Below are positions 293 to 51,408 of a DNA stretch of 64,000 nt, piece by piece (within the stretch, counting starts at the first letter, position 1; each line of letters starts with the position of its first letter). The notes beneath the pieces are model-generated. The model did no database searches. It saw nothing but the letters and a program-made list of their open reading frames with translations, and was not told the DNA's origin. Position numbers and translations under genes: made by a program. The DNA comes from Schmidtea polychroa (lineage: Eukaryota), in the NCBI GenBank assembly GCA_044892525.1, contig CM097885.1, positions 30,382,001 through 30,446,000 on the forward strand, in the 5' to 3' direction.

Positions 293-3200
293 ATGAATTC
301 TTTAATAGAAAACGTTATGAATGTCCGAGAAAAAATTCAGAAATTTGGTAAATTTTAATTTATTTATTAATTAATTTATTAATTAATTTAGATAATATTA
401 ATGAAGACAATTTAAAATCTAAGATTAAAGGAAATTTGAAAAGAAAAAGTAAACATAATTTTTAATTTATTGATTTAATTAATTAATAATTTAGGTAATA
501 CGAATAAAGAAAAAAATTATGTCAATGTGTCAATAAATCGAAATGAAAATTTACAATGTAAGTATTGATTACTTTTTATAATTTAAAGGAAATTTAATAT
601 AATTTTTTATTTAAGTAAATGTTAATATTTTTAATTTAGTAAATTTTTATTTTTTAGTAAATAAAATTTGTAAAATAATAATAATTTGCAAATTTTTGCG
701 TAAACATTTACTAAAATATTTCATTTAAATTATATTTTTTTTATTAAATTTTTATTTTATAGGTATACTTTACCCAAATTATTGTTCATCGAAAGAACAT
801 GATAATAATTGCCATTCTATAATGGAGAATTATTATACGAAAAAATATTATAATAAAACTTATTTTATATGTCCCGTATGTAAGACTAGTGACCCCGTAA
901 CATATAGCGTTTTTTATAATAAACATAAAAATCATTTAGATAGGTTTAATTTTAAAAAAGATAGTGTTTTTAAAAGACCCTCAACTATAGAAAAAAATAA
1001 TAAAAATAAAAAAATTAAATTAGATACTTCTTCTTTTGAATCCCAGGTCGGATTGCCTTTTGTGGAATCCAATGATGGATTGGTTGTCGAATCCCATGAT
1101 GGATTGGTTGTTGAATCCCAGGTTGGATTAGATAATATTTCCCTTGACTCTTGGGATGGATTAAATATAATACAAATAGGTGGAAATGTTCCAATAATAC
1201 AAAAAGATCTAAGAGGTACCCATCAAATATTAAGCTTAAATACAAGCGACTTAAATATAAAAGAAATAATATTTCCTGAACAACTAATAAAAAAATTACG
1301 AGATATTATTAACGAATTAGGCTCCGTCAAAATTCAATTCGGAATAACAATCGAATTTGAAAAAGACGGGGAAATAAAGGTTAATAATATCTCAAATTAT
1401 GCAAAGCCTTTAACTGCATCATTTTTTGATGAAGGCATTAAGGAATTAAATGAGAAAATTACTAATATTACTGAGTTAGGAAGCAGTTGGAATATAAAAA
1501 ATATCACTGAAATACATTTCACCATAACAAAAATAAGTAGGCTAAGTAGATTAAGTGGTAGGAGTTTCATTGAAACACCTACTTATCTAAAAAATAAATA
1601 TTGTTTAATTAATATAAAAAACACCGATGATTCATGTTTTTTATATAGCATTTTAGCTATTTTAAAATATGATGAGGTTAGTAGTTATGCTAGAAATAGG
1701 ACATCCAGTTATAATTTATCTGAATTAATATATAATCCATTGGACTTACCCATGAAATTAAAAGATATTAGAAAATTCGAGGCCAAAAATCCAGGCTTAA
1801 TAATTAACGTTTTTTCTTATGACAATAACAAACAATTAATAGATAATTACGTATTAAAACACCCACATTTAGATATTATACATCGTTCCAAAGTTTTAAA
1901 TGGAACTGTAATTAATTTACTATTATTAAATAAAGGAAACAATTTCCATTACGTTGCTATAAGTAATTTAAATAAGTTAATGAATTGTCATATCAACACT
2001 AGTTGTCCTACACGCATACGTTCATTATGGTGCCATCGGTGTTTGAATGGGTTTAATAATAAACACGCACTAGAAAAACATGAAATATTATGTAAACGTA
2101 ATCAATTAGGAACAACTCTTTACACCTTCCCTCAAAATAAATTATTACAGTTTACTGACTGGTCGAAAACAGTAACTCCTCCTTTTGTAGTTTATGCAGA
2201 TTTTGAGGCTATTTTACCTTCTGATAATGATCATTTCCAACGACACATGCCAATATCTGCTGGTCTTTTACTTGTAAATAACTTTGACGGATCTAAATCT
2301 TATCAGCAGTTCATAGGTTTAGATTGCGTCGAGAGTTTTTTAAGTGCTATAGAGGATATAGCATTAAATAAGGTTCTTCCTTTTTATTATAAAATGGATA
2401 GGAAACCTATGATGAAATTAACAAAAATTGAACAACGTCAATTTGTTAGTGCATCTGTTTGTTATCTTTGTATGAAATCTATCGTCGATCCTGTTAGAGA
2501 TCACGATCATTTTACGGGGAAATACTTGGGTGCAGCTTGTAGCACATGTAACGTAAATAGGAAAATAAATAAAATTTTGCCTATCGTATTTCACAACTTG
2601 AAGGGATACGATATGCACCATATACTTAAATATGGATTAAATAAATTTAAAAATTGGAATTTAGGGTGCATCCCAATAACTACGGAAAAATTTATATCTT
2701 TGATTGCGCATTTAGGTAAAATTAGCCTAAGATTCATTGATTCGTATCAATTTGTCAATGATTCTTTGGCTAAAGCAGTCAAAACTTTGAATTCTTTGCC
2801 TTTTACTAATTCTGCTTTTTCTGGCACCATAGTAAGTGAAAAAGGAATCTTCCCTTATAATTTCGCCACTTCTTTAGATATTCTCCAAACTACTTATGAA
2901 TTACCACCAATCTGGGAGGGTGTCACTGAGCTTGAGTATGAAAAAGCTCAGGAGATTTGGGTAGAAACTAATTGCGTAACTTTATTAGATTATATGATGA
3001 TCTACCTAAAACTTGATTGTTTTCTTTTGGCTGATTTCTTTCATCAGTTTCGGTTGAAATCCATTGCTCACAATAGATTGGAACCATTGAATTATTTCGG
3101 AATTCCAGGCATGTCTTGGTCTTCTGCATTAATGTCTTTAAATGAACCAATTGAACTCATAACTGAAAACGAAATGTTTAGCTTTTATGAGGGTGGAATA

Positions 3201-4634
3201 AGAGGCGGTCTTACTTTTGTGAATAAGCATTACGTAAAAACCGACGAGAACACTGAGTTACTATATATAGATATTAATAATCTTTATGGCTGGGCTTTAA
3301 GTCAATCATTACCTTGTGGCGAATTTTGTTGGGTTCTTGATGGATTTGATAAAATAATGGATGAATGTAGGAATTTAAATCTTGAATCTTTGTCTTATGG
3401 ATACACACTTGAAGTTGATCTTGTAATTCCTTCTGAGCTTCATGATAAGTTGGATGATTTCCCTGTAGCTGCTGAAAAAATGAAACCTGCTGGGTCTAAG
3501 GTTGAAAAATTATTATTAACTCATCTTCCAAAATCTAATTATGTTATTCATTGGAGATTATTAAAATTATATTTGGAACTTGGTGTTAAAGTAACACGTG
3601 TAAATAGGGGTGTAAGATTTAAGCAATCACCAATTTTTAAAAAATATATAGATACAAATACCGAATTAAGATCAAAAAGCGTAAATAGCTTAGATAAAAA
3701 TTATTATAAATTGCTAAATAATAGTTTATACGGCAAAACAGTTGAAAATTTAAAGAGAAGAATGAATCTTCGTCTTTGTACAACTGCCGGTAAATTAGTT
3801 AAATATTCGTCAAAACCGACTTTTAAAAAATCTATTAAAATAGCAGATAATTTAATTGCAGCACTATTGAATTCCGATTCTATATGTTTAGATAGACCGA
3901 GTTACATTGGTCAATCTGTACTTGATCTATCTAAACTTAGAATGTATGAATTGCAATATAAGGATCTGGAATCATTTCGCAATGAGTTTAATTGTAAAAT
4001 TAATATCGTTGCAGGTGATACAGATTCTTTTTTCCTCGAAGTCATTAACTGCAAACTTGAGGTTCTTTTACCTGCAATGGTTCGAGATAATTTATTGGAT
4101 ACTTCCAATTACAATAGTTGTCATTCCTTATATAGTAAGAACCTTGATTCAGTCATTGGAAAGTTCAAAGACGAGAATAAAGGTCTTAAATATAAGGAGT
4201 GGGTTTTTCTTAGACCTAAATGTTATAGCTTGTTGGGTGATGAGGAAACAAAAAAGGCTAAAGGTGTAACATTGAAAGGTAGTGACATAAAACATCAGTC
4301 ATACCTGGATTGTTATAACACTAACCAGATTTTTTCGGTTCCTCAGACTAAAATAACAAGCAAAAATCATCAAATTTTTACAATTAAAAACACAAAAATA
4401 GCACTAACTAACAAAGATGACAAAAGGGTTTGGGTGGGGCAAAATACTAGTCTTGCATATGGGCATGTAAGATTAAGTGAATTAAATATTGGAGAAAATG
4501 TTGGAGAAATTGTTGCAGAAAATGTTTCAGAAAATGTTGGAGAAAATGATGGAGAAGATGAGGAAGAATTAAATGAAGATTTTGGAGAAGATGACATCGA
4601 TATCGATGACGTTATTTTGTCCGATGAGGACTAA
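293..4634 (+). CDS. Polinton/Maverick-type protein-primed DNA polymerase B (pPolB) with N-terminal zinc finger, OTU-like protease region and HNH/EndoVII insert; predicted spliced, ~1348 aa
   Basis: ORF 822-4634 has ExoI YADFE, EndoVII-like CYLC..VRDHDHFTGKYLGAACSTCN, pol motifs YIDINNLYG, KLLNNSLYGK and AGDTDS, and NTDDSCFLYSIL...FHYVAI. Manual splicing of exons 293-347, 392-448, 495-557 and 763-4634 (GT-AG, all phase 1) keeps the frame open from ATG 293. The family call is strong; the 5' exons are less certain. Confidence 0.92.
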
Positions 4635-6010: not shown

Positions 6011-7279
6011 ATTATAGAGCGTGTTTGCTATGGTAACATTTCAAACTTGCCTGTTTCATTTTTTTTTTCACACAGTTAAGTTGGTGGAATGCTTGAAGTA
6101 TTAATTTATTAGATTTTTAAAGATTATAGGAAATGTAAAATTTTGAAACAGGTATGATGACAGAAATTCCCGCCCAGATCCAATCTCAGCTTTTATGATT
6201 GTATGTCCGGATATCGACGGTCGATACAGCGACAGATTTTGTGTCGGTTTTATCCAATTTTAAATGCACATTTTATCAAATTTTAATGAACTCATTTTGT
6301 TTATTCAATTTTAAGTCTTAGGTTACAAAATTTTATTTTATTTGTTTGCTATCATTTTTTTTTTCTATTATTATTAAATTTTAATTTTATTAATTAATTT
6401 ATTTTTTTTTTCGTTTAGCCTTTCTCATTATTTTTGGTACTTCGAGGACGAAAGTAAGGTTTTCATTGTAAATATTTATTAATAGCAATTATTAAATTAT
6501 TTTAATGTACCGCGTTCATCTCTCCCTCCTTATTAGTAGGTCATTCCTGTCCCTGCATCTGCATTCTCAACAATACGATTTCAGCTTCGAATTGGAACAA
6601 GAGAATTTCCATCCTTTCCAGCTTTCTTTTACAAATCATATCCTCTATTTTCAAGTCGTCAATTTTCCTCTCCATTGCTTCCATGTTTCTTCTCATTTCT
6701 TTCATTGAGTTTCGACACTCTTTGATTGACTCTTCTTCTTGGGCTTCCTGAAGTTAAATATAATTAAAGTTTTCTTAAACACTCTTTATCGCGCAAGGCC
6801 AAGCACATCATAGCGAAGTCCGACCAAACAAAGTAACAAATCTACATTCATATAACCATGCTAATTTTATAAAATTTGTTTACACGCATGTAATTTTATA
6901 ATAGTTTTTATACAGTGGTTTTGATCACATTGAAAGATTCGAGTCGTAAGTCATCTATAGTATGCTGTCTATTTCCACACAAAATGATTGTTATTACTCT
7001 TAACCTAAGCGATAGTATGAGGAATGCTGTCAGTATGATGTATATCAAACATTCACAGATGATTAAAGTTTGACCAATCTCAATTTGAGTTCCATTTATT
7101 TATTACACGATTGTTACATTGATATTGACTTGTAGAAATTGGACGTGTGGTGGTTATGTCGGGTTTCAGCTTTGGCACCATTTTTGTCTCCACTAAAGTT
7201 GTTTGCCATCGATATGGCTCGAATATCCGTTGTTGGTATTTAATTTTTATCAGGTAATCATATTCTAAATTAGGAGTAA

Positions 7280-7400
7280 TAAATGAAAAATAACTTTTAC
7301 CGGCATCCAACAAAACGATAATTTTTTTCCCATTACTGATAATGATTCTTTTGTCGATTTCAGAATTTTGATATGCTATTGCTAATTTATTTTGAACTGT
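7280..7400 (-). pseudogene. Retropepsin (aspartic protease) remnant of element A
   Basis: RIIISNGKKIIVLLDAGKSYFS resembles the (I/V)xxLLDTGA protease motif and lies at the expected position. Confidence 0.55.
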
Positions 7401-7436
7401 AAAAACTACTCGATTTGACTCGTTTTTCCAATGGTT

Positions 7437-9380
7437 TTACAATGACCATTTATTTTCTATCACTTTCTCATTGTTATATAATTCATTTGTTTTTACTTTA
7501 ACTCTAATTTGATTGTTGAATTTTTCAGGAGTGTATGTCTCGTTTTGTTTATTCCTCCACGGGGGCTTGAAATTTGCCTTTAGCTCTCGTGCCACGTAAG
7601 TATTTTTGTCATAATTCGGTGTGAATGGCTCTCGTAAGTTATTACTCTCTATTTGTTTTGTTGTAATTAACACTTTATTACTATAACTGTTTAAAGTTTT
7701 ATTTTTGGTAAATTGAAGTTTCGTGTCCCTTTTTGCTTCATTTTGTTTTATAAAAATATCCTGATATTTCTTTACCCAATCTTTGAAATATTTCCTCTGC
7801 TTTTCTTTCAGATCAGTACTCACAATTTTATATTCTTTATAAATTTTTACATTTCTGGGAATTTTCTTTTTAATTTGAAAATAATTATATACTACCAATA
7901 ACGTTTTATTGTTGATGATTCCTAAAATTACAAAAACAAACATCGTCAACCATGTATATATCATTTTTGCCTTTTTACACTCATACACCCTTTTTGAATT
8001 CCTCGGTTTTAGTACCAAATTTTTCCATCCACCATTATATTTTATCCAGTTTGTCAAATATGTATTTGCCACTTTGGTGGCTTTTTCGATCAACTTTTCC
8101 ATTTTTTCCGAATCCAAACAACCATGTGTGCCAATTTTCAAGACAATACAAGCTAGAACCGTCAATACTACGTCTCTGTTCAAACCTTTATTAATTAACT
8201 TCTTGATTACTGTTTCATCACAAAATACATTTCCTTTAACGCTATGTTGAAGTATGATTGGAAATCTCCTTTTCAGCTGTTTCGCAAGTTGTTGCATAAA
8301 TTCATTTTCATATACATTCTCTTCATTTAGTGCATATATTTCCATTACCAACCTTTTTAAAATCACTTTTGTTTCAATAAAATCATTTAAATCTGTTTTT
8401 ACATCGCTTAAATCGTCTTTTTCTGTTAACTCACACTTTTTCCGGTTATGGTTATTTGATTTATCAGTATTACCAATTTCAACAAACTTCAATTCGCATT
8501 TTATTTCTTCCGTTTTTATCGGCTTGTCATTCATATTATCAATTTCTTGACTTGCTGCATCCGTTTCATTTACATCAGTTACATTTCCATTTCGCACTTC
8601 ATGTAAAATTTTGTTTTTTGACTCAAAACCTTTCAACTCAGCTTCATTTAGCTCCTCAGATAATTCAGTTTTAATTACTCTAATCTCATCATCTTCCTCT
8701 TTTACGATTTTAGGCCAGTGAGTTACAATAACCCTGTTTTCAAACATGTCATCCTTTGGCTTTGTTGCATAAACATTACTTATGTCATTTGGATTAAATC
8801 CGCAATTACCTAAATTTTCGTCATCGTCCAACACTATTCCTTTGTAAGTCAGTACAATAATCTCATTATTTTCCATTGTTTCTGCAGCTTTTTGTCGTAA
8901 TTTTGACACCTTAACGCTCCAGTGCTCTTGAAAGTATTCAACTTTTTCATCAATATTTAGAGCTATCATTAATGATTTCGAATTACACTCCGGTTCTCTG
9001 TAATCATATTTTAATTTCCGTAGAGTTTCCTTTAATCTGGTTTGATATTTCGTTTCTTTATGAATATGCAGCAAAATACATTCGAACAGCTTCTCTTTAT
9101 CTTTTCCATTCATTTTTGAACTCATCACTAATTCAAGACATTTATTGATCTCGTCCTCATCTCCGATATATAACATGTCTCGCAAATTCCTTAAAGTTTC
9201 GTTCCAATTTTTAAAATCTGAATTTGAATGATTAAAAGTATCCAAAATATTTACCTCATTTTTTAATCCAGGGATTAAACCACAATCTACCAAGTATTCC
9301 TCATCCCTCAGTTGTCCCATTTGCCGTTGTGTCAATTTCACGCTGCCTTTATTGTATTTAGCCAGAATAAGCATTGTCAA
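7437..9380 (-). CDS. Retrotransposon cargo ORF (647 aa) with ubiquitin-like segment and Bcl-2-family domain plus transmembrane helix
   Basis: Ubl-like VSKLRQK..LTYKGIVLDDDENLGNCGF; BH3-like MQQLAKQLKRRF; BH1-like KLINKGLNRDVVLTVL; BH2-like LTNWIKYNGGWKNL; hydrophobic IYTWLTMFVFVILGII. Confidence 0.7.
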   Translation of the reverse strand: MTMLILAKYNKGSVKLTQRQMGQLRDEEYLVDCGLIPGLKNEVNILDTFNHSNSDFKNWNETLRNLRDMLYIGDEDEINKCLELVMSSKMNGKDKEKLFECILLHIHKETKYQTRLKETLRKLKYDYREPECNSKSLMIALNIDEKVEYFQEHWSVKVSKLRQKAAETMENNEIIVLTYKGIVLDDDENLGNCGFNPNDISNVYATKPKDDMFENRVIVTHWPKIVKEEDDEIRVIKTELSEELNEAELKGFESKNKILHEVRNGNVTDVNETDAASQEIDNMNDKPIKTEEIKCELKFVEIGNTDKSNNHNRKKCELTEKDDLSDVKTDLNDFIETKVILKRLVMEIYALNEENVYENEFMQQLAKQLKRRFPIILQHSVKGNVFCDETVIKKLINKGLNRDVVLTVLACIVLKIGTHGCLDSEKMEKLIEKATKVANTYLTNWIKYNGGWKNLVLKPRNSKRVYECKKAKMIYTWLTMFVFVILGIINNKTLLVVYNYFQIKKKIPRNVKIYKEYKIVSTDLKEKQRKYFKDWVKKYQDIFIKQNEAKRDTKLQFTKNKTLNSYSNKVLITTKQIESNNLREPFTPNYDKNTYVARELKANFKPPWRNKQNETYTPEKFNNQIRVKVKTNELYNNEKVIENKWSL

Positions 9381-10666
9381 ATCTTTATTTGTCCATAAGG
9401 ATTGATAGAAAATTGAGCTTTAATACCATTGATGTCTGTGGTCTCCACGATAATATTATCCAAATCGTTTATGGATCTTAATGCTTTTCCAAATGTTCTC
9501 ATTAATTTTGCAATTTCCTCATCTTGGAGTATGCTGTAAAGCTTAGAACATAAGTTCAATGCACTTTTCAATTTCTTATGACTAAGTTGGATCTGACTTA
9601 ACTCTGTAACCAACTCTTTCAATCTTGGATTGTTTGTTTCCATATTTTCGAGCCATCTTTCCATTTTATTTAATGACAACGTAGCCTTTTCGTTCAACAA
9701 GTCATTTTTTACTTTATTAGCAAAGTTTTCCGAAATATTTTCGTACGCCATATAAGAGTCTGCTTCATCATCAAATTCAATTTTCGACATCAACTTGTCT
9801 AATTTTTTCCTCATTTCTCGAACTTCATTTTCCATCTTTTCTTTAAAGTCGTCATTTTGAGCATAAGCTACATTGGCATTGATTGATTCATCTTGAAATT
9901 TACTTGATTTCTTGGGATATCTAGAAGGTGATATAGTTCTTGAAAAACAATTTCTGCTAATGTGACCCATTTTTCCACATCGATAACATTCAATGTCACC
10001 ATTGTTTGGCTTGTTTTCAGTAAGTCTTCCTTTGGGACTCATATTTCTACCATTTCTGAGCCAACATTGATTTGAATAATGTCCAGGCTTCTTGCAAAAC
10101 TCGCATACAATATTATTCGATATCTCGTTTATTTGATTGCTGTTTGGTTGGATTGGTTCTTTTGATTCCCATTGATTCTTTACTGGAGTTATCGACCTTT
10201 CTTCTTTCTCAATATTTGCGGCAAATACTTCAGATTTTCTGGTACTTTTTAAATTCAATTCAATTTTCCTTGCTTTCTTCACGAGTTCATCTAAATTCGA
10301 AAAATCCACGTAGCATAGTGTTTTTTTTATTTCAGGATGGGCTCCAGTTATAAATTGATCTTCTAGCAATTCTTTGACTTGTTTCACCATCTCCACTTGT
10401 TCAGGTTTTGCTTCGAAGGCCTTGTCTGCTAAAGTCGTTAAATTGTATGCGAATTCACTTACCGATTCATTTGGATTTTGTACTCTGGCATAAAATTTTT
10501 GTCGCATTATCCTTTTAATATCGCCTCCCACCAATTTCATTGCCATAGCGTCTTTGAGTTTGGCCCAATCATTTCCAACTGTCTTTCTATCTACTTGTGG
10601 CCAAGCTTCTCTCGCAGCTCCTTTAAATAGAGTGGGAATCTTTGTACCATTATTGATTGTGACCAC
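9377..10666 (-). CDS. gag: Gag of element A (5' part probably frameshifted, true start near 10798)
   Basis: RVQNPNESVSEFAYNL and DQFITG capsid motifs; CEFCKKPGHYSNQC and CYRCGKMGHISRNC zinc knuckles. Confidence 0.9.
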   Translation of the reverse strand: MVTINNGTKIPTLFKGAAREAWPQVDRKTVGNDWAKLKDAMAMKLVGGDIKRIMRQKFYARVQNPNESVSEFAYNLTTLADKAFEAKPEQVEMVKQVKELLEDQFITGAHPEIKKTLCYVDFSNLDELVKKARKIELNLKSTRKSEVFAANIEKEERSITPVKNQWESKEPIQPNSNQINEISNNIVCEFCKKPGHYSNQCWLRNGRNMSPKGRLTENKPNNGDIECYRCGKMGHISRNCFSRTISPSRYPKKSSKFQDESINANVAYAQNDDFKEKMENEVREMRKKLDKLMSKIEFDDEADSYMAYENISENFANKVKNDLLNEKATLSLNKMERWLENMETNNPRLKELVTELSQIQLSHKKLKSALNLCSKLYSILQDEEIAKLMRTFGKALRSINDLDNIIVETTDINGIKAQFSINPYGQIKI

Positions 10667-10958
10667 CCATAGGCCGAAACGTACATATAATAATCGCCCA
10701 TGAAATCAGCAAACTCAACCGGGTCTCATCCATACTGATTCACCGGTAATTTTTGACAACTGACAAAGTCTATCATCTCAGCGTTCTCTCTGGCCATCTT
10801 TATTTTTCGGTTTCTCAAATTGTATTCACTCACTGCTAAATATTAAAATTAATAATCAATAATTACTACCTCTTCCAATTTCCAATTATTTTCAATTTTC
10901 TTAATACTTTAATTTTCTTCACCTCTTTCACCCTTCAATATTCGCCCACCAACGTTTT

Positions 10959-10976
10959 ATCACGTCGGGCTCACCA
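10959..10976 (-). promoter_or_regulatory. Primer-binding site, tRNA-Trp type
   Basis: Minus strand TGGTGAGCCCGACGTGAT, 7 nt downstream of the LTR end; near-match to the tRNA-Trp 3' complement TGGTGACCCCGACGTGAT. Confidence 0.8.
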
Positions 10977-10983: not shown

Positions 10984-11976
10984 TGTTGGGTTTTATGATA
11001 TCAAGATCAACCGTTGGTTACTCTGACTCCACGTGTTCCAAAATCAATAAACACAAACTCCCAACGTATATTTGTTTTATAACAATTCACAACTCTCAAC
11101 AATTAATCACACTATTGGTTAATCACAATTCTTACACAATTTAAGATCGAACTCCGCTCTGGAAGGTCTCGGCCTTGTACGATTTAAAAAAAATTGGTTT
11201 CACCTTTTGCTTGATTCCGCTCTCTGATCCGAACTCTTTTAATATTCCTTTCTGACTCCCAAATTCCTCTTATAATTCCTTTTTCCTTTTATTTTATTCC
11301 TCGAACTCCTATCGTCTGTTTCTTCGTGTCCCTACCTAAGGCTATCGCCAATTATGTGAATTTTGAGTTTCCTTATATACTCCCATAATCGTTGTAATTG
11401 CCCCGTTTTTGACCTAATTGATTTTGACTTCTTCCGCTATCATTCCCTAATTGACTATTTTTGTTGACCCTCTTCGTAATTCCCCGTCTTTTGTTTACCC
11501 TCGTTTATCCGGTTGTTTGGATAATTGCCCTCTGAATTCCTCGTTTGTTTACCCTTCCAAATTGCCGTGCTCGGGTTTTCTTCATCGCTCGGGTTCTCCA
11601 TTGGCTCGGGCTTCCCATTAGCTCGGGTTTCCCATTAGCCAATTAATTAATTAATTAATATTTTACGTTTTTCCACATTTGTCTGTTTTACGACCCTTTC
11701 TACACATTTTCTAACAATTTCTTGCTCACTGTCTTCTTCACCATCCCTTAATCTACCCCTCTCCCGTTTTCCAGCTTCAATTTCGATAACTTCTCACTTT
11801 ATTCCACTTCCTCCGGTTTGCGCATTTTCCCATTTCATCTCTGATTGTACCCTTTTATAGTTCTGTTTTTATCATATCTTTCTTTGCCATTGCTTCTCTG
11901 CTTGACCGCCATTCAATTTCGGCTTTCCTTTTAATCTGAACTATATAATTTAATAATTTATTTTCAAACCTCAACA
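10984..11976 (-). repeat. LTR of element A (993 bp)
   Basis: TGTTG...CAACA termini; PBS on one side and polypurine tract (PPT) AAGGGGGGAGATA on the other; 11732-11976 is repeated at 13570-13814. Confidence 0.85.
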
Positions 11977-12935
11977 TATCTCCCCCCTTAAAAAAAAATT
12001 TCGTCCTCGAAATATGCTTATTCGAGAATGTAATTTCAGTTAAAATTCACATATATTATTATTATTATTATTTTAATTTCATTTGATTGGAGAGTCATAA
12101 TAAAATATTTAGAATATTAAAATTTTGAGATTATTTTATTAAATTGATAGATATTTAAAATTTTGAGACTATTATTAATTTTATTAGACTTTATTAGACT
12201 ATTATTAATTTTATTAAAATTCGTCTTTAATTTAACATGCATAATGTTTAATGATTTAGATTACCCATATATCAGTTTTATCATTGCAGTTCAATTTAAA
12301 ATATTCCATCGATCAACATTCGAATCGAGTTAAGGGAGGTTAAAATTTATCACAGTTTGTTTGCTCCGAGATAGGAGCTAATATTCAAATGACCCACTCC
12401 AACCGTCCACCGGAACCAATATGATAAACATTGATTTGTGTAGTGGTTGCACAAATAGTGATCCCAAACTCACATTAACCCAAATACACAAATATACCAA
12501 ACAATCTACGATATAGGCGTGTCTGCACGACTTATCAATTCTGATCGACTGGTGCTGAAGTGCTGTGCAATTACTGCTGGAAGAGAAATATCATATATAA
12601 ACTGTACTATTACCCAAAATCTCATTCGGATTTGTCTGGTAATTTGCTAATTGAATTTTATTTATTCCATCACAACAAAACTCCATCGACATTATTATTT
12701 TAATCAACTACGTTAAAGGGTAAGGATGATTTGCTATTTGAATTTTATTTATTTATTTTCAGTTAGGTGTGTTCGTATTTGAATTTTCGTTGATTTTTTT
12801 TTTAAAAGATACAGAAGTCATAAAAATTTGATGAATTTAGAGTAATTAATGTCACGGTAGAGGATCATATGTTTCTTGAAATTTTTTCTTTTTTAATTAA
12901 TTTGTTTAAATTCATAATTGAAAATATATCGTTAA

Positions 12936-13251: not shown

Positions 13252-13571
13252 ATTCGTGCATTCTACAAACATATACTCGGCATTTCTATTTGATATACTG
13301 ATCTAGAAAAAGAATACTATCAGTTTTTCCCTGGTTCGGAATTCCTATAGAAAAGGATGTTTTGACAATGCTTCTCTATCAAACGTTTTCTATTCAAATA
13401 TCAGAATTTGGACCGACAGAAACTCACTAGTACTACTCACAGAAGAAAATAAATCTGAATATGTTAAATTAGTTTGTCAAGAGAAAATGATTGGAGCTAT
13501 TCACCAACAACTTCATAGTTTTCTCGAAGGGTTTTACGAAATCATACCCAAAAATTTGATCTCCATTTTTC
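13252..13571 (+). pseudogene. HECT E3 ubiquitin ligase (HUWE1/Tom1-like) fragment
   Basis: Translates as IRAFYKHILGISI*YTDLE...[10 protein letters not shown]...[44 protein letters not shown], with a stop and frameshifts. Confidence 0.85.
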
Positions 13572-13814
13572 TTCTTCACCATCCCTTAATCTACCCCTCT
13601 CCCGTTTTCCAGCTTCAATTTCGATAACTTTTCACTTTATTCCACTTCCTCCGGTTTGCGCATTTTCCCATTTCATCTCTGATTGTACCCTTTTATAGTT
13701 CTGTTTTTATCATATCTTTCTTTGCCATTGCTTCTCTGCTTGACCGCCATTCAATTTCGGCTTTCCTTTTAATCTGAACTATATAATTTAATAATTTATT
13801 TTCAAATCTCAACA
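13570..13814 (-). repeat. Truncated copy (5'-most 245 bp) of the element A LTR
   Basis: Near-identical to 11732-11976. Confidence 0.92.
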
Positions 13815-13915: not shown

Positions 13916-14714
13916 CTAATTTAACCAAATATGCTGGTTTAATTCTTCAAAATTGATTCTTTTTTCCGGGGAATAAATAAGACATTTTTTCATTAATTCT
14001 TTTGCCCTATCAGAACATTTTTTAAATATAACTGGTTTAAAGTCTTCATAATCTTTCATGGTTGAATATGGCCTTTTTGATTCTAAACAACTGTAAACTA
14101 AACTTCCAAACATGAAAACCAGATTCTTTTTGACATAATAATTAACGGCTTTGAAAGTTTCTGGACCGCAGTATCCAGTCGTGCCAAGCTTTTTCTTACA
14201 CATTGGATGCGGGTTGATATTATCATACAGAGTCCTCGAAATCAATTATTTTTATTCGATAATTAATTTTGTTAAAAAATATATTTCGCGGTTTTATATG
14301 ACGATGGTAAATTCCTTTTCTTACAAGTTCCTGTAATACTATTAAAACGTTTTTCAATATTCTTTTTATACATTTCTCTAATCTTTTTTTTCGAACATAA
14401 GAATATAATTCAATCCAGTTGCCAGTCAAATGTTCCATAACTATTGAAAATTCGGTGTCGTTTTGAAAATAATTGAGAATTTTTGGACAAATTTTATTGT
14501 TATTGATTAAATTGATAAAATGCATTTCTTTAGGAATGGGAAATGGATAATTATCATTTTTAATGAATAAATATTTTAAATTTTTGTAAAAGGATTTTAT
14601 GACCACAGTTTTAACTTTTGATTTAGTTGCATCTCGATTTTCTGCAATTGTTACTTTTCCTTTGACAGTCGATTGTAACACTTTTACAAATTTATAATCA
14701 TTTTCTGAACACAT
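13916..14714 (-). pseudogene. Intronless PIM-like Ser/Thr kinase, frameshifted
   Basis: VVIKSF, IPKEMHF, GIYHRHIKPRNIF (HRD->HRH), IIDFE, GTTGYCGPE, CLIYSPEKRINFEELNQHIWL, split over ORFs 14223-14714 and 13916-14245. Confidence 0.8.
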
Positions 14715-15073
14715 ATTTCTTCACTTTTAATTAATTGTTAAAATAAAATTATAAATAGAGAATTTTTTTTAATTAAATTAATTATAATAAATTTAATTTG
14801 TCAAAATAAATATTAATAGGTGATCAAATTTTCAATCGAGTTATCAATGTCTTTCTAGATTTACTAGACAAGATAATAAATTTCTAATATGGACACTCTA
14901 AAAACATCTGGTGTTTAATAAATGTTATCATAAGTAAATTTGATCAATTATAGATAGAGCACACTGACTCAATTGGGTATGATTCGTTGATCTGATCGGA
15001 CTTTATCAGACTACAAGGTGATGGATCATATTCTTTGTTCTACAGTCTGTCAATAACGTCATGTCAAGGTCTT

Positions 15074-16232
15074 TCAAACTTGTAAGTGCACTGGCTCAAA
15101 TGACCCTAACTGTTGTTCTTCAATTGTTCTTGTAAAAATTAAAATATCGTCTAAATACACCATAACTCCTTCTTTCCATAGATCTTTCAATATTTTTGTC
15201 GTTAATTCTTGGAATGTACCCGGTGCCGCCGCAATGCCAAAAGGCATTCTATTAAAACAAAATTGCCCTTCTTTAGTAGAAAATGCTGTCTTTTCTTGCG
15301 ATTCTATGTCCAATTTCACTTGATAATAAGCGTTCCCAAGGTCTATAGAACTAAAGTACTTAGATCCATGTAATGTATCTAGAATTTCTTCTACATTCGC
15401 CATAGGAAAAGCTTGTCTTTCAGTAATCTTATTAAGCTGTCTAAAATCTAAACAAAGTCTGATATCTTTTTTGTCTTTTTTCCACACACATACTAACGGC
15501 GTATTCCAAGGTGAATTACATCTTCTTATGATATCATTATTTTCTAAATTTTTTATAGCAGCATTTATTTTCTCCTCTAAATTGATGGGTTGTCTTCTGG
15601 GTTTTATCATAATTGGCTCTTCTTTTGTGATGATTTTATGTGCAATTAAATCAGTACATCCAATATCCCAGTTATTAGCCATAAAAACACTTTTATTGTT
15701 TTTAACAATCTCTAACAGTCTTTTATTTTCGTTTAATCTTAGAATTTCTATTGCTTTTTGACATCTCTCGTTATCTGTAATCTTTTCCCCAAATTAAGCT
15801 TCTATTTCACACACAAATTTATTATATCCTTCTTCATTTTGCTTGATGTAGTTTAATTCAATTCCAAACTCTTTCTGCAATTATATTATAAATACTATTA
15901 TAAATGTTATTTTTCTTTCCATATTACCAATTCTAACATCAATATATATTTTTCCGATTGTCTCTAATTTACTATCATTTGCACATCTTAACATCTCATC
16001 TGTCTTTATGATTTTCACATTCACTAATTTGTCCACAACTGCTTCTGCCATTACATTTACTTTTGCTCCTGTATCTAGTAAACATTCCATTCTATAGCCC
16101 TGAATTTCAAGAGTTGTACTCGGTCTACCTTGCATTTTGTCATAACTCAATTGCGGTCGTTTCCATTCATCTTTAGTGAAAATATTTTGCTCCTCTGATA
16201 TTTCATTAATCCACCCAATTTCCTTTCTCTCT
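15074..16232 (-). pseudogene. Ty3/Gypsy element B pol: protease and partial reverse transcriptase
   Basis: CLLDTGAKVN; SPWNTPLV, RLCLDFRQLN, IDLGNAYYQV, RMPFGI, VYLDDILI; frameshifted and truncated after YLDD. Confidence 0.92.
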
Positions 16233-17037: not shown

Positions 17038-19930
17038 TTAAAGTTCTTGTTTCGATTTGCATTCATTTGTAGACGGAGCAGTTGCGATATGCATTTGACG
17101 AATCTTATAGTGACCGTAGGCATAGCTTTCATTAGAATTGAACCAATACCTTTTATCATCCAAACATTGGAGAGCTCGTTTTTCTGTAATGAAAGTATAC
17201 AACTGATGATTAACACTTCCTATTCTCTTTTGTTGGATGCTCACTGTTCCACCATCAGTATACACTTTTTTATAGGCTTCATGGGTGATATTAGAATTTG
17301 TAAGACTTATTCCTTTGGCTTTTAGAGTGTTTTTATCTCCTTGGAGTGAGTAGCACTTGGGTCGAAGAAACACCCATTCTTTATATTGATTTCCTTTATT
17401 CTCATCCTTGAATTTCCCGATTACCGAACAAATTTTATCTGAGAACAATGGATCAGTCACCGGATAATTTGAAGTATCTAGGAGCCCATCGGCAATCATT
17501 TTTGGATACAGTTGTAAGCGTAAATCAACATTTTTACACTCTAAAAAGAAGGAATCTGTGTCACCGGCTACGATATTAATTTGACAATTGAATTCTTCTC
17601 TATAACTCTGTAGTTCTTTATATTGAAACTGGTACATGCGAAGTTTAGATAAATCAAGTACGGTTTGTCCAATATACATTGGTCTATCTAAACACACCAT
17701 TTCCTTATCAAGTATAACAGCAATGAGATCATCCGCAATCTTGATGCTACGACGAAACATAGGATTACTACAATAAGTTATCAATCTTTTGCTTTTGCTG
17801 CATAATCTCAAATTTATACGTTTCTTAAGGTTTTCCACGGTTTTACCGTATAAACTATTGTTCTTTAACTTATAATAATCTCGCTGAAATGAATCTGTAC
17901 TAGCTGCTCTCATTTGAGTATTGTAATCAATATAGCGTTTGAAAATAGCTACTTGCTTGAATTCTACAGCACGATTAACTTTTGTGACTTTTGCGCCGTA
18001 ACTCAACCACTCTGTCAAAACTCTACCATTAACTACATAGTTTTTCTTAGGCTCATGAGTTAACAACAGCTTTTCAACTTTACTACCAGGTGGATAACAA
18101 AGCTCAGGAGCTATAGGTAAATCATCTAGCTTATCTTGTATACTATCAGGAATGACGATGTCAACCTCTAGAACATATCCACGATCTCCATCAAACTCAT
18201 CCCCATTTGCACATCTTTCAACAATACCATTCATTTCAGTCTGATCATTTATCCATCTAAATTCACCAATAGGAAGTTTTTGCGACAGCGCCCATCCATA
18301 TAAATTATTAACATCTAGGTATGACATTTGTGTTGATTCATCAGCTTCAACATGATGTTTGTTGATAAATGTCATTCCACCACGAATACCAGCTTCAAAT
18401 AAAAGGTAAAGCTCTGGATCTTGAATAAGTTCTACCGGTTCAGGTAACTGTTTAATAGCTGATGCCCAACTTAATCCGGGTATGGAAACAAACGATAAAG
18501 CCTCAAGTCCATCTTCGTCAAATGTTTTTTCTCTGAAAGCTTCAAAAACATCGGCCAACACAAAAACATCCAACTTGAGATATACTAGCATGTAATCTAG
18601 CAATGTCTCACAGTTATATTGTCGCCAGATTTGATTTGCATGTATATAATCTTCTTGACTAACTCCCTCCCAAATCGATGGTAATTCTGTTATTGACTGT
18701 AAAACATCCATTGACGTAGCAATATCATAAGGAAATATGCCTTTACCAGTTATTAGATGCGAATTGAAAATCTTTGAAGTAAGTGGAAGACGTGGCAAGT
18801 TTTTTGATAAATTTGCCAAGCTGCTATTTAAAAATTGTAAAGAATCAATGAATCTAATTCTTCTGCCTTTCGATGTCGCTGTAAGTGTGAGAAACTTTTC
18901 TGTTGATTGAGGAATAACAATTAAATTCCAATCTGGGAATTTTCCAATTGCATATTTTAATATATGATGAATGTCATATCCACGAAGATTATGAAATACA
19001 ACAGGTAAAGACGGATTGATTCTTCTAGCCAAATTACAATCTTGACACGCTGCTCCGAGATATTGACCAGTAAAATGATCATGATCTCGAACAGGTATAT
19101 TGATAATCTTTTTACAAAGGTAGCAATGAGTTTGAGTCGTGAATTCTTCCTGCTCTTCCCAAGTGAGTTCCATCATTTCCTTTGATCCATTAATTTTATA
19201 CCACGGATAAACTATGTCTGTAGCTATATCATCCAATGCTTGTATGAACTGAATGATACAGTTTTTCCCAACAAATGTTTCATTTCGGATCGGACAACCT
19301 TGATGGAGAAGCACAAATTCAGATGCAATCGGCTCATGTTTTTGGAAGTGTTTGTCATCTAGAGGTAATATCGATTCAAAGTCCGTGTAGACAACAAACT
19401 GCTGTTTTATAGTTTTACTCCAATCTTTAAATTCGATATATTTATTCTCTGGCATTGAGTATAGAGTCGTACGCTCCACATTCTTCCTACAAAGACCTAT
19501 ATGTCTTTCAAAAGCAGGACGTTTTTGAAACCCATGAAGACACGTATGACACCAATGTGATTGGATTCTGACTCCTTCTACTCTATCTCTGTAATTCAGC
19601 AGTCGATCGAGATTAGTTACAGCCAAAAAATGATAATTTAATTCTAAATTTAGTTAATATTTTTAATGATTAAAGGAAATATTACCTTCTTCAATCAATA
19701 GGAGATATATCTGAGATCCCGTCGAAGTACTTCTATATACCAAGTCAATGAACGGATTCTTGAAAATATCATTAGTTTTTTGTTTAATTGGATCTTTATT
19801 ATATTTGAGAACATTGATCGCTAGATTTGGATTAATTGCTTCAAATTGGCAAATGTTAACCAACTTCATCGGAAACCATTCAAATTTCCATTTTAAGTCT
19901 TAAAAACAAAATTCAATGATTTATGACATT

Positions 19931-20019
<89 letters not shown>

Positions 20020-21081
20020 CCACTTAAGTTATATTTTGTTGTTCTTTCTCTATTCCGACGTATATCATCATAACGTAACACAGCTAGTATGCTATATAAA
20101 AAACAGAATTGATCATTGTTTTGAACATTAACTAAAGCCTGAGAGTTTTTCAGGTAATTTGGCGTTTTAATGTAACTTGAACCTAAGTAATCTCTTGATT
20201 TATATATATAATAATGTAAATAATCTTACCAGATACATGTATTATGTCTGATAATTTAGTTAAAATCATAGTAACTTCTAATATTTTATGAATTCTCCAC
20301 CCACTACTTTGTTGAGTGTATTTCTCCAACTTTTCTTTTAATTTTTCAATTCCATCATTAATAAATGAAGATGACATTGTAATTGCTTTATTCGACAAAC
20401 ACCATTTTTTAATTTCACCATCCTCTTTGATAAACTCTGCATAAAGTCCAAATTGGATTTTTACTGTCCCCATTCGTTGAATATGATCTTCTATTTCTTT
20501 GATGAGACAATCTGGAACAACAATGTCAGGAGAATTAATTGCAGATACATCGCTTGTCAATTCAACACGAGAACCGTTTAAGTCAGACTCCCGACGTGGA
20601 CACAATTGTATGTTAGAGTCTCCATTTCCGTAAAATATTGACTTTCGTTTTGTGGTGCCAGAGTTTTGTCTAACTATATTTATAATTAATATTAAACAAC
20701 TTAAATAACATAACTTGTAACATATTCTTTAATCTCCTTAGGATCGTATGATGTATTCATTTTCGATTGTACTATAAAAAATTAATAATTGTTAATAGTA
20801 GAAAGAGTATTACTTTTAGTGATCATCCTGCTCTTCGTTTCTTCGAATCTTCTAAGATGGTGTCCGTGTTGTCGTACAAACATTAACCACCTACCTGGTG
20901 TTATAATGAGACATTCCGAACATATGTAACCCGATAAGGTAGAGTCATTTATCTTGAAATATGATGATTCATTATTTTCGTATCTTTCTATTGCTTTTAA
21001 TTTCTCACTAACTGGAATCTTTTTGTTTTTTTTTAATTTTTTGTTGTAAACATTATTGTTTATTGTCAGGGAATTTATTTC
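17038..21081 (-). CDS. Second pPolB, spliced; open frame of ~1249 codons, start codon not identified
   Basis: Exons 21081-20814, 20771-20715, 20673-20230, 20182-20021, 19898-19686 and 19643-17038 join in frame through GT-AG phase-1 introns. The product is colinear with pPolB 822-4634. Motifs YTDFE, VRDHDHFTG, YLDVNNLYG, KLKNNSLYGK and AGDTDS are intact. Confidence 0.9.
19937..20017. repeat. (TA)n microsatellite inside pPolB intron 19899-20020
   Basis: Directly visible. Confidence 0.95.
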
Positions 21082-31174: not shown

Positions 31175-34100
31175 ATGCTCCTTAGTAAGTTTATTTTTAA
31201 TGGTTATTTATTTTAAATTAAATTAGATCGAAAATTTATTACAAATTTATACTGTTATAAAGGTTACTTTAAATTATTGTGCTCTTTTGATATTCCGTTT
31301 AATATGCATAAGCATTCTCAGATTGTTATTTTATCAAAATATTACAATACGAAAATAAGCAGTCATAAAAATGAAGTAGAAAAAATGAATTATTTAGCAA
31401 ATGAATTGTGTAGGCCTTATGAAATTTTATTAAATTCTTTATCTCATAACTGGACTATTCCTCCGGTGCCGGAGCAATTTTGCTATTGTGAAGGTTGGAC
31501 CAAATATGACAAAAAAAATTCTTTTCACAAAGTTTCGTTTCCTGACGAAGATGTTATGATATTTGACATTGAAGTAATTGTGAAAGAAGGTAATTGGCCA
31601 TCAATTGCTGTGTGTTTGGGAAAAAATTCTTGGTATAGTTGGGTGTCAAATCGTCTGATTAAACCAGATAATGTGAACGGGAATATTATTTATTCTGATG
31701 AATTAATACCACTTTTTGATAATAAAGATAGAAATGGTTTTCGTTGTGTAATTGGACATTTTGTTTCGTACGACAGAGCAAGAGTTGCAAATGAATATGT
31801 TAATCAGGTAATGTTAAAAATAGAATGATTTATATAAACTTTGGGAATTTTTAAAAAGTATTTTTTAGATATTTATAAATTTTAAAAGTTAATAAAAAAT
31901 GAAAAGAATAAATATCACCATAAATGTCTAGTAATATTTTTAAATGTATATTTAGTTAACAATTTCTTTACAATACTTATTTCAAATAATTTTGATTTGC
32001 CATACATAAAGTCTAATATCTATATGCCCTAATATATATTGATATTTTCTATAATACATAGTTGCCATAGTTAAGATTAGGTTTTATTGAATTCTAATGG
32101 TTGATGTCATTTTATTCTCATTAATTCTTTACACTTCGTGCAAGTAGGTCAAATCTTTGTTTTTAGAGAATTTCATGATAAAAATTTTATACACTTTCAA
32201 TAATTAATACTCATTTTTGAAGTAAGAATTAAATTAAAAATTTGTGATAATTTTGTTTAGAGTTCAAACACCAGATATGTTGATACCATGTCAATGCATA
32301 TTGCCATTTCTGGCATGACCACGAGTTTACGGCAAAGATACAAAACATCTGGAAATTTGAAGGTAGTTATGAAAATGGTATTATTTAGAAAACAAACATT
32401 TTTCATAGTGGAAAAAAGTCACTAGTGGAAATAGTCTGGTGGATGTATATTCTCTTTATTTACCCAATAAAAAACCACCACAAAATAAAGACAAAAGAAA
32501 TATTTTTGTTAATGGATCTTCTTCTGATATTATTAATAATTTTCAAGATTTGATGAAATATTGTGCAAATGATGTTCTAATGACAGCTGAAGTTTTTCAA
32601 AAAATTTTCCCTATATTTCAGAACAGGTTAGTTAAAATTTATTTATTGAAAGGATATTTATATTATTCAAAAATAGATTATTGCATTTAAATTACAAAAT
32701 TTAAATAACTCATTTTATTTGTCATTTTCTTAAACAAATTTGGAGGCAAATATGAATGTATTTCTATATAGGATGGAATTTTGTAGAGTTTGCCATTTAA
32801 AATAAAAATAACTGGGATACATATTATTATGGTTTTAAGTTACCAAAGGTTGGTTTTATATTAAATCAAAAATTGAATAAAATAATAGTTATTATTCTTC
32901 GTTGTTTGATAATACCATTAGAAAGCTCACAAGGAGAATTGGAATATAAAATAAAATTGATTTGAAAACTTTCAATAGACTATTGGGAATGGCAGAAATG
33001 TTCACTGGGAGATTTCCAACAAAAATATTAATATATTTTGCTAGTCTGATAAGCAGACAATCCATTTGAATGAGGATGAGGATTATGTAGCTTAAAATTA
33101 TAAAATAGTAACTGAAAGTAAAATTATACATTTCAAAACAATTTACGCAGTTATTACAACACCAGCGTAACACGTCGAAAAATCATCGGTTTAAATACAT
33201 TCAACATGCTGTAAGTAGCTGTTATTATTAATTATTAATATTAATTAATATTAAAAAATTATTTTAGATTATTAATTTTTATTACTTTATTATTATTAAT
33301 TATTAAAATTATTATTAATAAATTTTTTTTACATTATCATTATTATTTATTTTAATTATAATTATTATTAATTAATATTAAAAAATTATTTTAAATTATT
33401 ATTTATTATAATTGTTATTAATTATTATTAATAAATTTTTTTTACATTTTTAATTTTTATTACTTAATTATCATTATTATTATGATTATGATTATTATTA
33501 TTATGATTATTATATTATTATTATTCATTATTATTAATAAATTATTTTACATTATTAATTTTTGATTAAATAATTAAACATACATGGCAATGATTTAATT
33601 ATAAGAAAATGCTAATCAAACATTCTTTTCGGGTTATATTTTGACAGATTTTCTGCCATCATTAGGTAGGATATAATAACTATAAATTAAGGATTTTTAA
33701 ACAAATTTATTGATTGTATTAATTATATAAAAAAAATTTTAATAAAAAGATTTCATTCTTTTAAAAAATATAATTAAATTAAAATATTATTTTTTTAATT
33801 TTAACATTTAGAATTTAATTTAATAATTTTACAATCGATACAAAAAATTATTTAAAAAAATTTAAAACACAAGTATTCACTGCATTCTGCACATTAATTT
33901 TCAGATTCAATGATTTTATCAATAACGCCTCACAAATTATACGTTCCCAATAATTATCGAAATTTTTATAATCAGACATTCCTATTATAAGACTCTTACA
34001 GTCAATGCATTCGGTCTATAATGCTCTCGAGCTCGAATACAGAGATGACGGGAAGTCTCTCCAATGTATGTGGCATTACACCCATTACATGTAAACTGAT

Positions 34101-48367: not shown

Positions 48368-49887
48368 TGTTGGTTACTTAGGGGTGTATCATTTTTAATC
48401 ATAATCGTTCGACTCTTTCCTAAGCACCTCCATGACTATTGCAATTTAAACCATTTGTGTACCCATGGTGACGACCATGTTGGTCCTGTACACAAAGGTG
48501 AAAAAACAATGAGCAGGTGAGCTCCATTACTAAAACTACTCCCCATTGTATTTTCTTTTCGGGTTCTAGACTGCCGATAGAAGGTCTTACGTCATTAGTC
48601 ACTGTGTGCTACTTTTGGATCGTTGTTGGTCCTCAATTACGGGTATTTCTAATTGTTCTCTTATAAAATTTTGTGCAGGGATCCGCCCTTATTTTCCAGC
48701 TACTAATTATTGTTCTACACTTCCTACAATATCTAAATTATCCTTTGAAAAATTTGAGCAGGGATTGGCCCTTATTTTCAAGTTAATCCACGCTTCCCAT
48801 AATATTTACGTTATACTTCAAAAAATTTGAGCAGGGATCTGCCTGTATTCTCAGTCCTAACCTACATTTGACCACAGTACTTCCAGCGATAGGACCCGTG
48901 AGGAAGCCCCCACATTCCGGCCCAATCCAGCTGCGCGATTGAAAAACCAGCATACCCACCAGTCTGAGCATCCCGAAGGTACCTCAAACCATGATATGCT
49001 GAATCTCAATTCAGCGGTACTAACGTTCGTAATCAGTTAGTATAAAAATTGAACACAATAAAAATTATTATTTAATATCTGCAACTAAATGAAATTAAAC
49101 AATTAAAAGAAAATAACAAAAGAAAATTTAACTAAAAATTTTATTGCATATTAAATTTAATCATCTCATAAAATTACTACAACAATAAAAAATAAATTAC
49201 CAAATCCACGTGGGCATAAAATCGAAAACTGAGAGCTTCACTGGCTACAACTAAATTTTGATGTTAGAGAAAAAGTAGTCCCTTTAAATGAATTGGTGAT
49301 CAGTATTTATACTGATTTTTCATGCATTTGCTGCCACTCTATCCAATCAGAGTGCGAGAAATTTTTAATTAGTCTTGCATACATGCATGAGTGTGTGCAA
49401 TTGTTTATTTGTTTTAATTCAATAAATTTAATTAATTTCTTATTTAATTTTTATTAATTTTAATTTTATAAATTTTATAATTTAAATAATTTGAGTTATA
49501 TTAATTTTTATTAATTTAAACATTTTTATTCTTTAAATTTAATAAGTTAAATAACCATTTAATTCTATAAACTTTACAATTTATATAATGCTAACCAATT
49601 TTATTATTTTTGACGATTTAATTTTTATATTGTTTAAATAATTTTCAACTAATTCTATTTTATATTTTATTATTTTTCTATTTTAATTTTTAAGTGTTGA
49701 ATTTTTTGTTAAATTTATTTATCTCTTATTCTATTATACGGGGTTTATTGGTTCTTAATGTGTGATGTAATTTATTTCATTTATTTTAAATTAAACCTTG
49801 GTCATAAATTTTTCAACTTTGCGGTTTTTGTGTTAGGTATTTTCGATCGATTAAAACAAACTCTCAGTTCTCGGCTTCAGCCCAACA
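48368..49887 (-). repeat. 3' LTR of element D (1520 bp)
   Basis: Direct repeat of 60555-62097; I see one substitution and one 23-bp indel. Confidence 0.95.
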
Positions 49888-50919: not shown

Positions 50920-51408
50920 CTACACTTCCTCTTTAATTTCCACCACATCCTTTGGACTACCCATCTTCTTTTCCTTGGCCGTCATCATTTGTGTCTCTTC
51001 TGCCCTATCTTTGCATTTTTCTCGATTACTCGTTATTTCATTGATTCTTAATTCGGCTGACCTTGCTTCTTCTTTTAGTCGGAGTATCGTTGCCTTAAGT
51101 ACCTCATTTTCTCTTGTTTTGTTTTCTGCAACTTTTCTCCATATCATTATCAATTCATCCTGTCTCGTTTCTTTTACAACCAGTTCCATTATTAACCTGC
51201 ACTGTTCCACACATTGTCTCCTCAATTCCTCGTATGCGTTGGGTTTCACCTGTTCCTTCACGTCATTTGTCCGTTTCTGTACATTTGTCGACTGTTGTTT
51301 TATTAGCATTGGAGATTGGTGTTTTCTAATTTCTGGCTGATAAATTCTGTTTTCGACATATTTTTTATTGTTCTGTTCTGTGACGTATTCTCGTGACTGA
51401 TCTCTCAC
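50920..51408 (-). CDS. Coiled-coil-like ORF downstream of gag in element D (probably a broken gag extension)
   Basis: Charged helical sequence on the gag strand; no recognisable domain. Confidence 0.4.
   Translation of the reverse strand: MRDQSREYVTEQNNKKYVENRIYQPEIRKHQSPMLIKQQSTNVQKRTNDVKEQVKPNAYEELRRQCVEQCRLIMELVVKETRQDELIMIWRKVAENKTRENEVLKATILRLKEEARSAELRINEITSNREKCKDRAEETQMMTAKEKKMGSPKDVVEIKEEV

Follow-up and report, generated by a model that had tools for sequence, protein, structure and literature searches.

An enzyme-less, Burro-related retrotransposon subfamily of Schmidtea polychroa with Gag, ubiquitin-like and predicted Bcl-2 domains and a likely full-length helper

Planarian Burro elements are described as carrying Ubi/SUMO-like, BCL2 and env domains between gag and protease, and meddling in apoptosis has been proposed for them (PMC6431247); this published cargo matches what an earlier note on the present DNA had mentioned for giant flatworm Ty3 elements. 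For Burro1, an IAP is reported to protect stem cells (PMC13465017, citing Lee et al. 2026). Schmidtea also harbors Smed_errantivirus_1-6, six intact, env-bearing GAG-ENV-POL errantiviruses of the HSV/gB type (Chary & Hayashi 2026, PMC13524379), in an article whose main text contains no occurrence of bcl, ubiquitin or non-autonomous.

We analyzed a stretch of 64,000 nucleotides from Schmidtea polychroa (GCA_044892525.1, contig CM097885.1, positions 30,382,001 to 30,446,000), here called the window. It contains a dead, 3′-truncated copy of an enzyme-less, Burro-related Ty3/gypsy subfamily. We consider it probable that this subfamily, which lacks env and pol and has kept Gag, ubiquitin-like (Ubl) and predicted Bcl-2 domains, is non-autonomous and mobilized by a full-length family sharing its LTRs. 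The observed part of this explanation comprises the order of the domains, two large in-frame deletions, recent insertions, and the LTR, primer site, 5′ end of gag and 3′ non-coding region held in common with that family.

On the minus strand of the window, a frame of 660 codons (7437–9419) lies downstream of a gag frame (9377–10705). From their overlap, and from a supposed protease remnant just beyond the 660-codon frame, the earlier note had judged a single polyprotein probable. The common origin stands, many sister copies being single open frames of 1,312–1,333 codons (the subfamily's longest has 1,333), while the overlap itself goes back to a 1-base frameshift near 9386 that is private to the window copy among 30 loci. 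Two separate genes with a 4-nt overlap are ruled out by the same sister copies and private frameshift. The window copy cannot make the polyprotein: stops near 10728 and at 7437 interrupt it, as do frameshifts near 10621, 9386 and 7091. Similarity to sister copies stops at ~6058; the remaining element and the 3′ LTR are absent. The following features were mapped:

10984–11976, minus strand: LTR of 993 bp, TG...CA; 5′ LTR of the window element
10959–10976, minus strand: primer-binding site, putatively of the tRNA-Trp type; its 15-mer has 1,822 genomic occurrences, against 0 for the reversed control
9947–10797, minus strand: gag with capsid region (PF03732) and two CCHC knuckles (10105–10064 and 9988–9947), disrupted by the stop near 10728 and the frameshift near 10621
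9473–9874, minus strand: coiled or helical Gag extension, a generic helical bundle in the model
9243–9466, minus strand: probable first ubiquitin-like domain (Ubl1), cut by the private frameshift near 9386
9000–9215, minus strand: second helical domain, a HEAT-like bundle with non-specific matches
8766–8981, minus strand: second ubiquitin-like domain (Ubl2), internal and without a free C-terminal Gly-Gly
8376–8765, minus strand: linker, acidic and fast-evolving
8016–8375, minus strand: predicted Bcl-2-fold domain, helices 1–8, with BH2 kept, BH1 as N-R-D-V and BH3 without Gly-Asp
7887–7967, minus strand: hydrophobic stretch, the Env signal sequence of full-length relatives
7743–7874, minus strand: protease-RT linker remnant of 45 codons, joined in frame after loss of ~935 codons (env, protease)
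6908–7742, minus strand: post-integrase tail remnant with a membrane segment at the C-terminus; ~890 codons (RT, RNase H, integrase) were lost at its in-frame junction, and it is broken near 7438 and 7091
6058–6907, minus strand: 3′ non-coding region

Full-length relatives, at ~57% and ~45% identity, are single frames of 3,329–3,346 codons with the order Gag-Ubl-Bcl-2-Env (PF24664)-protease-RT-RNase H-integrase-tail, the tail measuring ~590 residues; Pfam gave no MATH, BIR or ankyrin match in them. Their enzymes and Env follow Bcl-2 in frame, as expected of an autonomous GAG-ENV-POL element. The window copy lacks this set: env, protease, RT, RNase H and integrase are missing from it and from 30 of the 30 closest loci (no match to env or pol probes). 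In the deleted layout, the hydrophobic stretch leads into the 45-residue piece of the pre-RT linker and on into the post-integrase tail. A DNA search with the junction gave 124 candidates, and all 40 that were scored had this arrangement. Of 21 copies with greater divergence (85–98% identity), 19 had it as well, and two end short of the junction.

These comparisons revise several assignments of the earlier note. Its protease remnant after the open reading frame (7436–7083) is 74% identical to the C-terminal post-integrase tail of the full-length relatives, whose true protease sits elsewhere and is absent from the window copy. Its hydrophobic anchor is an Env signal sequence, directly followed in full-length relatives by the fusion glycoprotein; the junction of Bcl-2, hydrophobic stretch and Env recurs in six of nine scanned public homologues. 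The placement of the cargo between gag and protease applies to full-length relatives, with env in between, but not to the protease-free window copy. The deletions also left the tail with little of its hydrophobic signal and altered the residue before the inferred signal cleavage site, a small-residue position occupied by Val in deleted-type copies; speculatively, the product of the deleted subfamily might be an uncleaved two-pass membrane protein. No full-length parent of the Ubl-Bcl-2 cassette was found among the copies examined. The post-integrase tail (locus L044, 4800–6029; window 6908–7742) carries a hydrophobic stretch at its N-terminus and a membrane segment at its C-terminus, together with N-glycosylation sequons, and resembles a second surface protein, with no Pfam match.

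The LTR at 10984–11976 also serves as the 3′ LTR of an upstream element remnant, as the polypurine tract and 3′ internal sequence ahead of it indicate. That remnant (11977–12777 and 13287–13569) matches the 3′ internal region of another deleted-type copy (L048), which accordingly seems to contain a captured HECT ligase fragment (window 13307–13627, Pfam E 4e-10). Tandem or shared-LTR arrangements recur in these families (L043 2448–5901, L109 4107–5175, L079/L080, L081/L082). A 245-bp LTR piece lies at 13570–13814, and a protein-kinase frame split in two (13916–14720 and 15074–15793, minus strand) stands beside an RT fragment, possibly as cargo of another element. Farther away are two more Ty3/gypsy remnants (41615–44654 and 50920–53553, minus strand) with gag, protease, RT/RNase H and integrase pieces, including a 640-codon gag. 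A near-identical repeat pair (48396–49539 and 60606–61749, 12,210 bp apart) surrounds the gag at 50.9–53.5 kb and may represent its LTRs. An exon-like frame at 31217–31828 (plus strand) probably belongs to a host gene, with a Pfam match (E 4e-40) to the exonuclease domain of mitochondrial DNA polymerase gamma.

The earlier note had staked its case on finding a Bcl-2 fold in profile or structure searches and the segment in further copies, and both were found, the segment in at least 150 other genomic places. Cut out of the frame (~8375–8016), the Bcl-2-like domain matches PF00452 at E 4e-4 over profile positions 2–100 of 100, with 21.4 bits, below the gathering cut-off of 31.4 for Pfam membership; the whole 660-codon frame gave E 0.004 for Bcl-2 and 0.003 for ubiquitin. 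A single-sequence PDB search returned schistosome Bcl-2 as best matches (E 0.03), a profile of eight element copies reached Bcl-2/Bcl-xL in the PDB at E 1.3e-4 (60 of 60 among the matches listed), and profile-profile comparison with Bcl-2 gave a probability of 93.8%. The AF2 model (pLDDT 64.8; two of five models folded) matched cellular Bcl-2 proteins in Foldseek with probability 1.0, at an E-value of only 2e-3, and viral Bcl-2 proteins as well. VIA aligned it to Hydra Bcl-2-4 at Z 12.6 (rmsd 3.2 over 129 residues), and its best 34 matches were all Bcl-2-fold. An eight-helix Bcl-2 fold is well supported by these models and profiles.

Homologue searches were sparse in names. HMMER against 1.84 billion representatives yielded 13 matches, one of them (P0010) spurious, and the eight looked up were all nameless; a word-indexed search in two length classes found nothing at E 0.001, which is weak evidence. 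An ESM Atlas search returned unrelated matches only, under 0.8. The last result fits an account in which both the Bcl-2 and the Ubl likenesses arose by chance in an AT-rich, helical orphan frame, as do the single-sequence Pfam scores under curated cut-offs, the Foldseek E-values above 0.001 and the Ubl1 part of the model with its pLDDT under 50. Chance would nevertheless have to explain why sequence profile, profile-profile comparison, Foldseek and VIA all rank Bcl-2 proteins first, why the element profile recovers a public protein whose Pfam Bcl-2 score exceeds the cut-off and why the same domains are published for Burro (PMC6431247). For Bcl-2 such a coincidence is already largely refuted, and for the two likenesses together we find it scarcely credible.

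The BH motifs proposed in the earlier note held up in part. BH2 is retained, its Trp-Ile-x-x-x-Gly-Gly-Trp being invariant in all eight aligned rows. The BH3-like helix is rightly placed but lacks Gly-Asp; pro-apoptotic Bax/Bak or BH3-only proteins have a BH3 with Leu-x-x-x-Gly-Asp, whereas the helix-2 words here show Leu-Lys or similar at that point. At BH1, N-R-D-V or a close variant replaces N-W-G-R in 62 of 62 matched words of the examined loci, so that Trp, Gly and Arg of the canonical pro-survival motif are all lost. Trp and Gly are missing from every retroelement homologue inspected, and the window clade has lost the basic residue too. In N-W-G-R, the Gly and the Arg are important for binding BH3 (PMC9027176), yet viral Bcl-2 proteins without BH motifs, such as DPV022, are still able to bind Bak, Bax and Bim (PMC11209288). 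By analogy with these motif-less homologues, a domain with lost groove residues may still act, its activity being a predicted one.

The same motif losses bear on a reading in which the fold has been repurposed, in full-length and deleted forms alike, for a non-apoptotic task: a spacer, a membrane tether for Gag assembly beside Env or an inhibitor of innate signaling. Poxviral Bcl-2-fold proteins include innate-signaling inhibitors, and the fold search also returned vaccinia A52 and N1 (Z 8.1). The invariant position of the domain directly before the Env signal and the loss of residues that matter for BH3 binding also speak for repurposing. The model is nevertheless nearer to pro-survival and viral BH3-binding proteins (Z 11–12.6), and the example of DPV022 shows that a motif-less domain can bind death regulators. 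Repurposing is conceivable, though we lean against it; it is compatible with our preferred explanation, agreeing with it on mobilization and differing only in domain activity.

The origin of the domain was approached through 11 other Bcl-2-like frames of the genome, among which the element profile ranks one divergent single-locus gene first (25.7 bits; next 16.6). The sole clear non-retroelement public match resembles this host gene, and together they hint, weakly, at the donor lineage. As an alternative donor, a pair of host genes combining two Ubls with a Bcl-2-like domain was unsupported: 90 kb around its inferred place gave no Bcl-2 or Ubl profile match at E 1 (exons of at least 20 codons). 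One region of segmental duplication (L049–L055; C4, ~89.9–90.8 Mb) contains a Bcl-2 gene with canonical N-W-G-R in seven or more nearly identical copies.

Polinton-like elements of this genome carry Bcl-2-like genes of their own (L071–L076 and L085 5778–6233; L064–L069, L077, L078, L086 and L087), adjoining TBP-like, A32 ATPase and integrase frames. These genes are either split or intronless, the intronless form having 152 codons and scoring above the Pfam cut-off; Bcl2 in adintoviruses has been mentioned (PMC8502044). Polinton/Maverick-type B-family DNA polymerase frames also occur in the window at 729–4634 (plus strand) and 17038–20728 (minus strand). The former, an unbroken frame of 1,301 codons, directly adjoins the retroelement where that is truncated; a further frame of the same length lies just upstream of the window (L095).

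The Ubl-like stretch proposed in the earlier note proved real as Ubl2 (8981–8766). As a cut-out domain it matches PF00240 at E 2e-4, under the curated cut-off, and its profile reached ISG15/ubiquitin-like chains in the PDB at E 0.02, the 41 matches at E up to 10 being mostly Ubls. Its model has the strand-strand-helix-strand pattern of a beta-grasp, with pLDDT 66–78. A second, upstream Ubl at 9466–9243, absent from the earlier note, is probable on weaker support: hhalign relates Ubl1 to Ubl2 with a probability of 92% over 30 columns, and the alignment has a helical bundle upstream of each Ubl. Pfam scores for Ubl1 were E 0.009 and 0.11 in two relatives, with no match for the deleted-type copy; its best PDB match was at E 0.1. 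The Gag extension, for which death-fold domains had been suggested, gave no death-fold entry among the best 50 VIA matches, which were generic helical bundles with Z up to 10.7 (model pLDDT 58).

The segment belongs to a numerous and still mobile group. At least 151 genomic matches were counted (150 of 1,358 candidates scored), falling into several families, and further searches add more. LTR pairs of deleted copies are 99.6–99.7% identical (three of three pairs aligned), 4-bp target duplications flank four of six measurable pairs, and deleted copies are still inserting. With LTRs, a primer site, target duplications and dispersed copies and without RT or integrase, the subfamily has the makeup of a non-autonomous LTR retrotransposon, in a form that has lasted at least 10% divergence.

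The comparison for possible helpers took in families B, C and D and a fourth family. LTRs of deleted copies and of the full-length family B share a mean identity of 97.9%. In a tree of 33 LTRs the two interleave, with 8 and 7 label changes, of which at least 3 and at least 4 are forced by well-supported branches; under midpoint rooting, old deleted copies lie towards the base. The two groups also have the primer site in common, and are 98% identical in the 3′ non-coding region and 95–98% identical over the first 150 gag codons. For the Ubl-Bcl-2 cassette, identity to family B drops to 60–77%, and family C is about equally far. Because the ends match B and the cassette has diverged, the subfamily is a mosaic of an old cassette and cis-acting ends renewed from the likely helper. 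These common cis-acting sequences make family B the likely autonomous partner, whose enzymes would copy and integrate RNA of the deleted subfamily in trans.

Selection differs by level and by region. Between families, the Bcl-2 domain has a dN/dS of 0.25–0.32, with dS near saturation, and the acidic linker is similar at 0.20–0.33. Within the deleted subfamily the reading frame is protected: indels common to at least 3 of 50 deleted copies comprise five in-frame and one frameshifting, against 31 and 97 among private ones (p 0.005). Amino-acid constraint was examined across cargo and tail, with polymorphism counts from local alignments. Fixed differences were used because, with old copies included, the class of changes shared by three or more was contaminated by recurrent mutation. 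Between 15 old and 30 young copies, nonsynonymous and synonymous fixed changes in Bcl-2 and anchor stood at 9:2 against a decay baseline of 113:27 (p 1.0), and in the Ubl block at 11:3 against 138:62; constraint was undetected in either. Changes fixed in Bcl-2 along the deleted lineage thus look neutral, in small counts: the 11 changes are also compatible with weak constraint or positive selection, and the private changes of the young copies, which were picked by likeness in the Bcl-2 domain itself, tend in the direction of constraint (13:7, p 0.14). A departure from the baseline was seen only for the remnant and tail (4:7 against 138:31, p 0.002, at thin coverage); within the deleted lineage, a hint of constraint is confined to the post-integrase tail. 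Recombination with family B found no support as the source of the synonymous tail changes, B having the old allele at three of seven sites and the young one at one of seven. One sequencing run, of RNA or possibly DNA, covered 29 of 30 bins.

A protected frame could mean that the deleted subfamily is a cooperative accessory element, supplying extra Gag and a membrane-anchored Bcl-2-fold death blocker wherever the full-length family is active. Cassette and anchor stayed in frame through two large deletions, spreading lineages have preserved the frame, and the deleted form has both persisted and kept inserting. Precedents exist for each half of the idea in the Burro1 IAP (PMC13465017) and in wheat Sabrina/WHAM as Gag-donating partners (PMC9744471). 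Against such cooperation stand the neutral-looking fixed changes in Bcl-2 and Ubl block, an 11-residue in-frame loss within Ubl2 that has spread to 8 of 50 copies and the uniform replacement of N-W-G-R. We hold it improbable. Quite improbable, too, is a fuller division of labor between two retroelements, in which the enzyme-less subfamily keeps swapping LTRs with its helper for co-expression and gives Gag fused to a membrane-anchored Bcl-2-fold protein, with a surface-exposed tail domain, for the survival of the host cell that both occupy; such a subfamily would be a satellite-like element of animals with a captured death regulator at its core.

In our preferred explanation, the two forms of the element part ways in what the Bcl-2 domain does. 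Judging from domain order and hydropathy, the polyprotein of full-length relatives would be threaded into the ER, with Gag-Ubl-Bcl-2 staying cytosolic. The hydrophobic stretch after Bcl-2 would act as the Env signal, open translocation and be cut by signal peptidase, which would leave the Bcl-2 domain tail-anchored on the cytosolic face. From there it would likely dampen death or stress signaling in the producing cell through a non-canonical surface; a pro-survival or signaling-dampening role is the likeliest activity of the putative domain in full-length elements. In the deleted subfamily, the frame is probably kept mainly for Gag translation and RNA stability, with Bcl-2 now largely a passenger; the Gag step would rest on the capsid region, and the within-subfamily test covered cargo and tail. 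A BH1 without Trp, Gly and Arg, a BH3 without Gly-Asp and neutral-looking changes argue against a death-blocking role there. If active, the domain would be a second anti-death device of planarian retroelements besides the Burro1 IAP and would bear on why a regenerating animal rich in stem cells tolerates such elements. The deleted subfamily also offers a natural experiment on which cargo stays once an element's own enzymes are unneeded, with the frame kept and constraint on Bcl-2 undetected. The gain is incremental because the cargo itself is already in print.

Among described systems, Burro/GYPSM1 (Arkhipova & Yushenova 2019, PMC6431247, citing Grohme et al. 2018 and Jurka 2007) is alike in having one polyprotein with Gag, Ubi/SUMO-like, BCL2-like and env parts before protease-RT-RNase H-integrase. 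It differs in length (4,873–5,140 aa, against ~3,330 aa and probably two Ubls in our full-length relatives), in the MATH, BIR and ankyrin domains that found no match here, and from the window subfamily in having env and pol. Smed_errantivirus_2 has the same gene order as family D and an env identical to it at 79 of 81 residues compared by eye (PMC13524379); unlike these errantiviruses, the window subfamily is without env, and its Bcl-2 domain shares ~44% identity with that of family D. The Burro1 B-IAP (PMC13465017) is likewise apoptosis-control cargo captured by a planarian retroelement; it is a RING and BIR IAP with a reported function, whereas here a Bcl-2 fold is predicted and no BIR was found. 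Viral KsBcl-2, A179L, BHRF1 and DPV022 also have the Bcl-2 fold and a hydrophobic segment at the C-terminus in a virus-like setting, as free-standing genes, many with N-W-G-R intact (PMC9027176, PMC11209288), in contrast to the polyprotein-internal domain here, whose anchor doubles as Env signal. In the literature searched, a non-autonomous Bcl-2-bearing planarian element with an LTR-sharing partner was not found described; Grohme 2018, Lee 2026 or Repbase/Dfam may describe one. Wheat RLG_Sabrina and RLG_WHAM, with RLG_Wilma, resemble the deleted subfamily in keeping a Gag frame without RT or integrase and in co-evolving with an autonomous partner, and differ in having neither env ancestry nor Bcl-2/Ubl cargo (PMC9744471). 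Set against these systems, in which the cargo is already published, the multi-copy deleted subfamily with its LTR-sharing full-length partner is apparently the new part, and a modest one.
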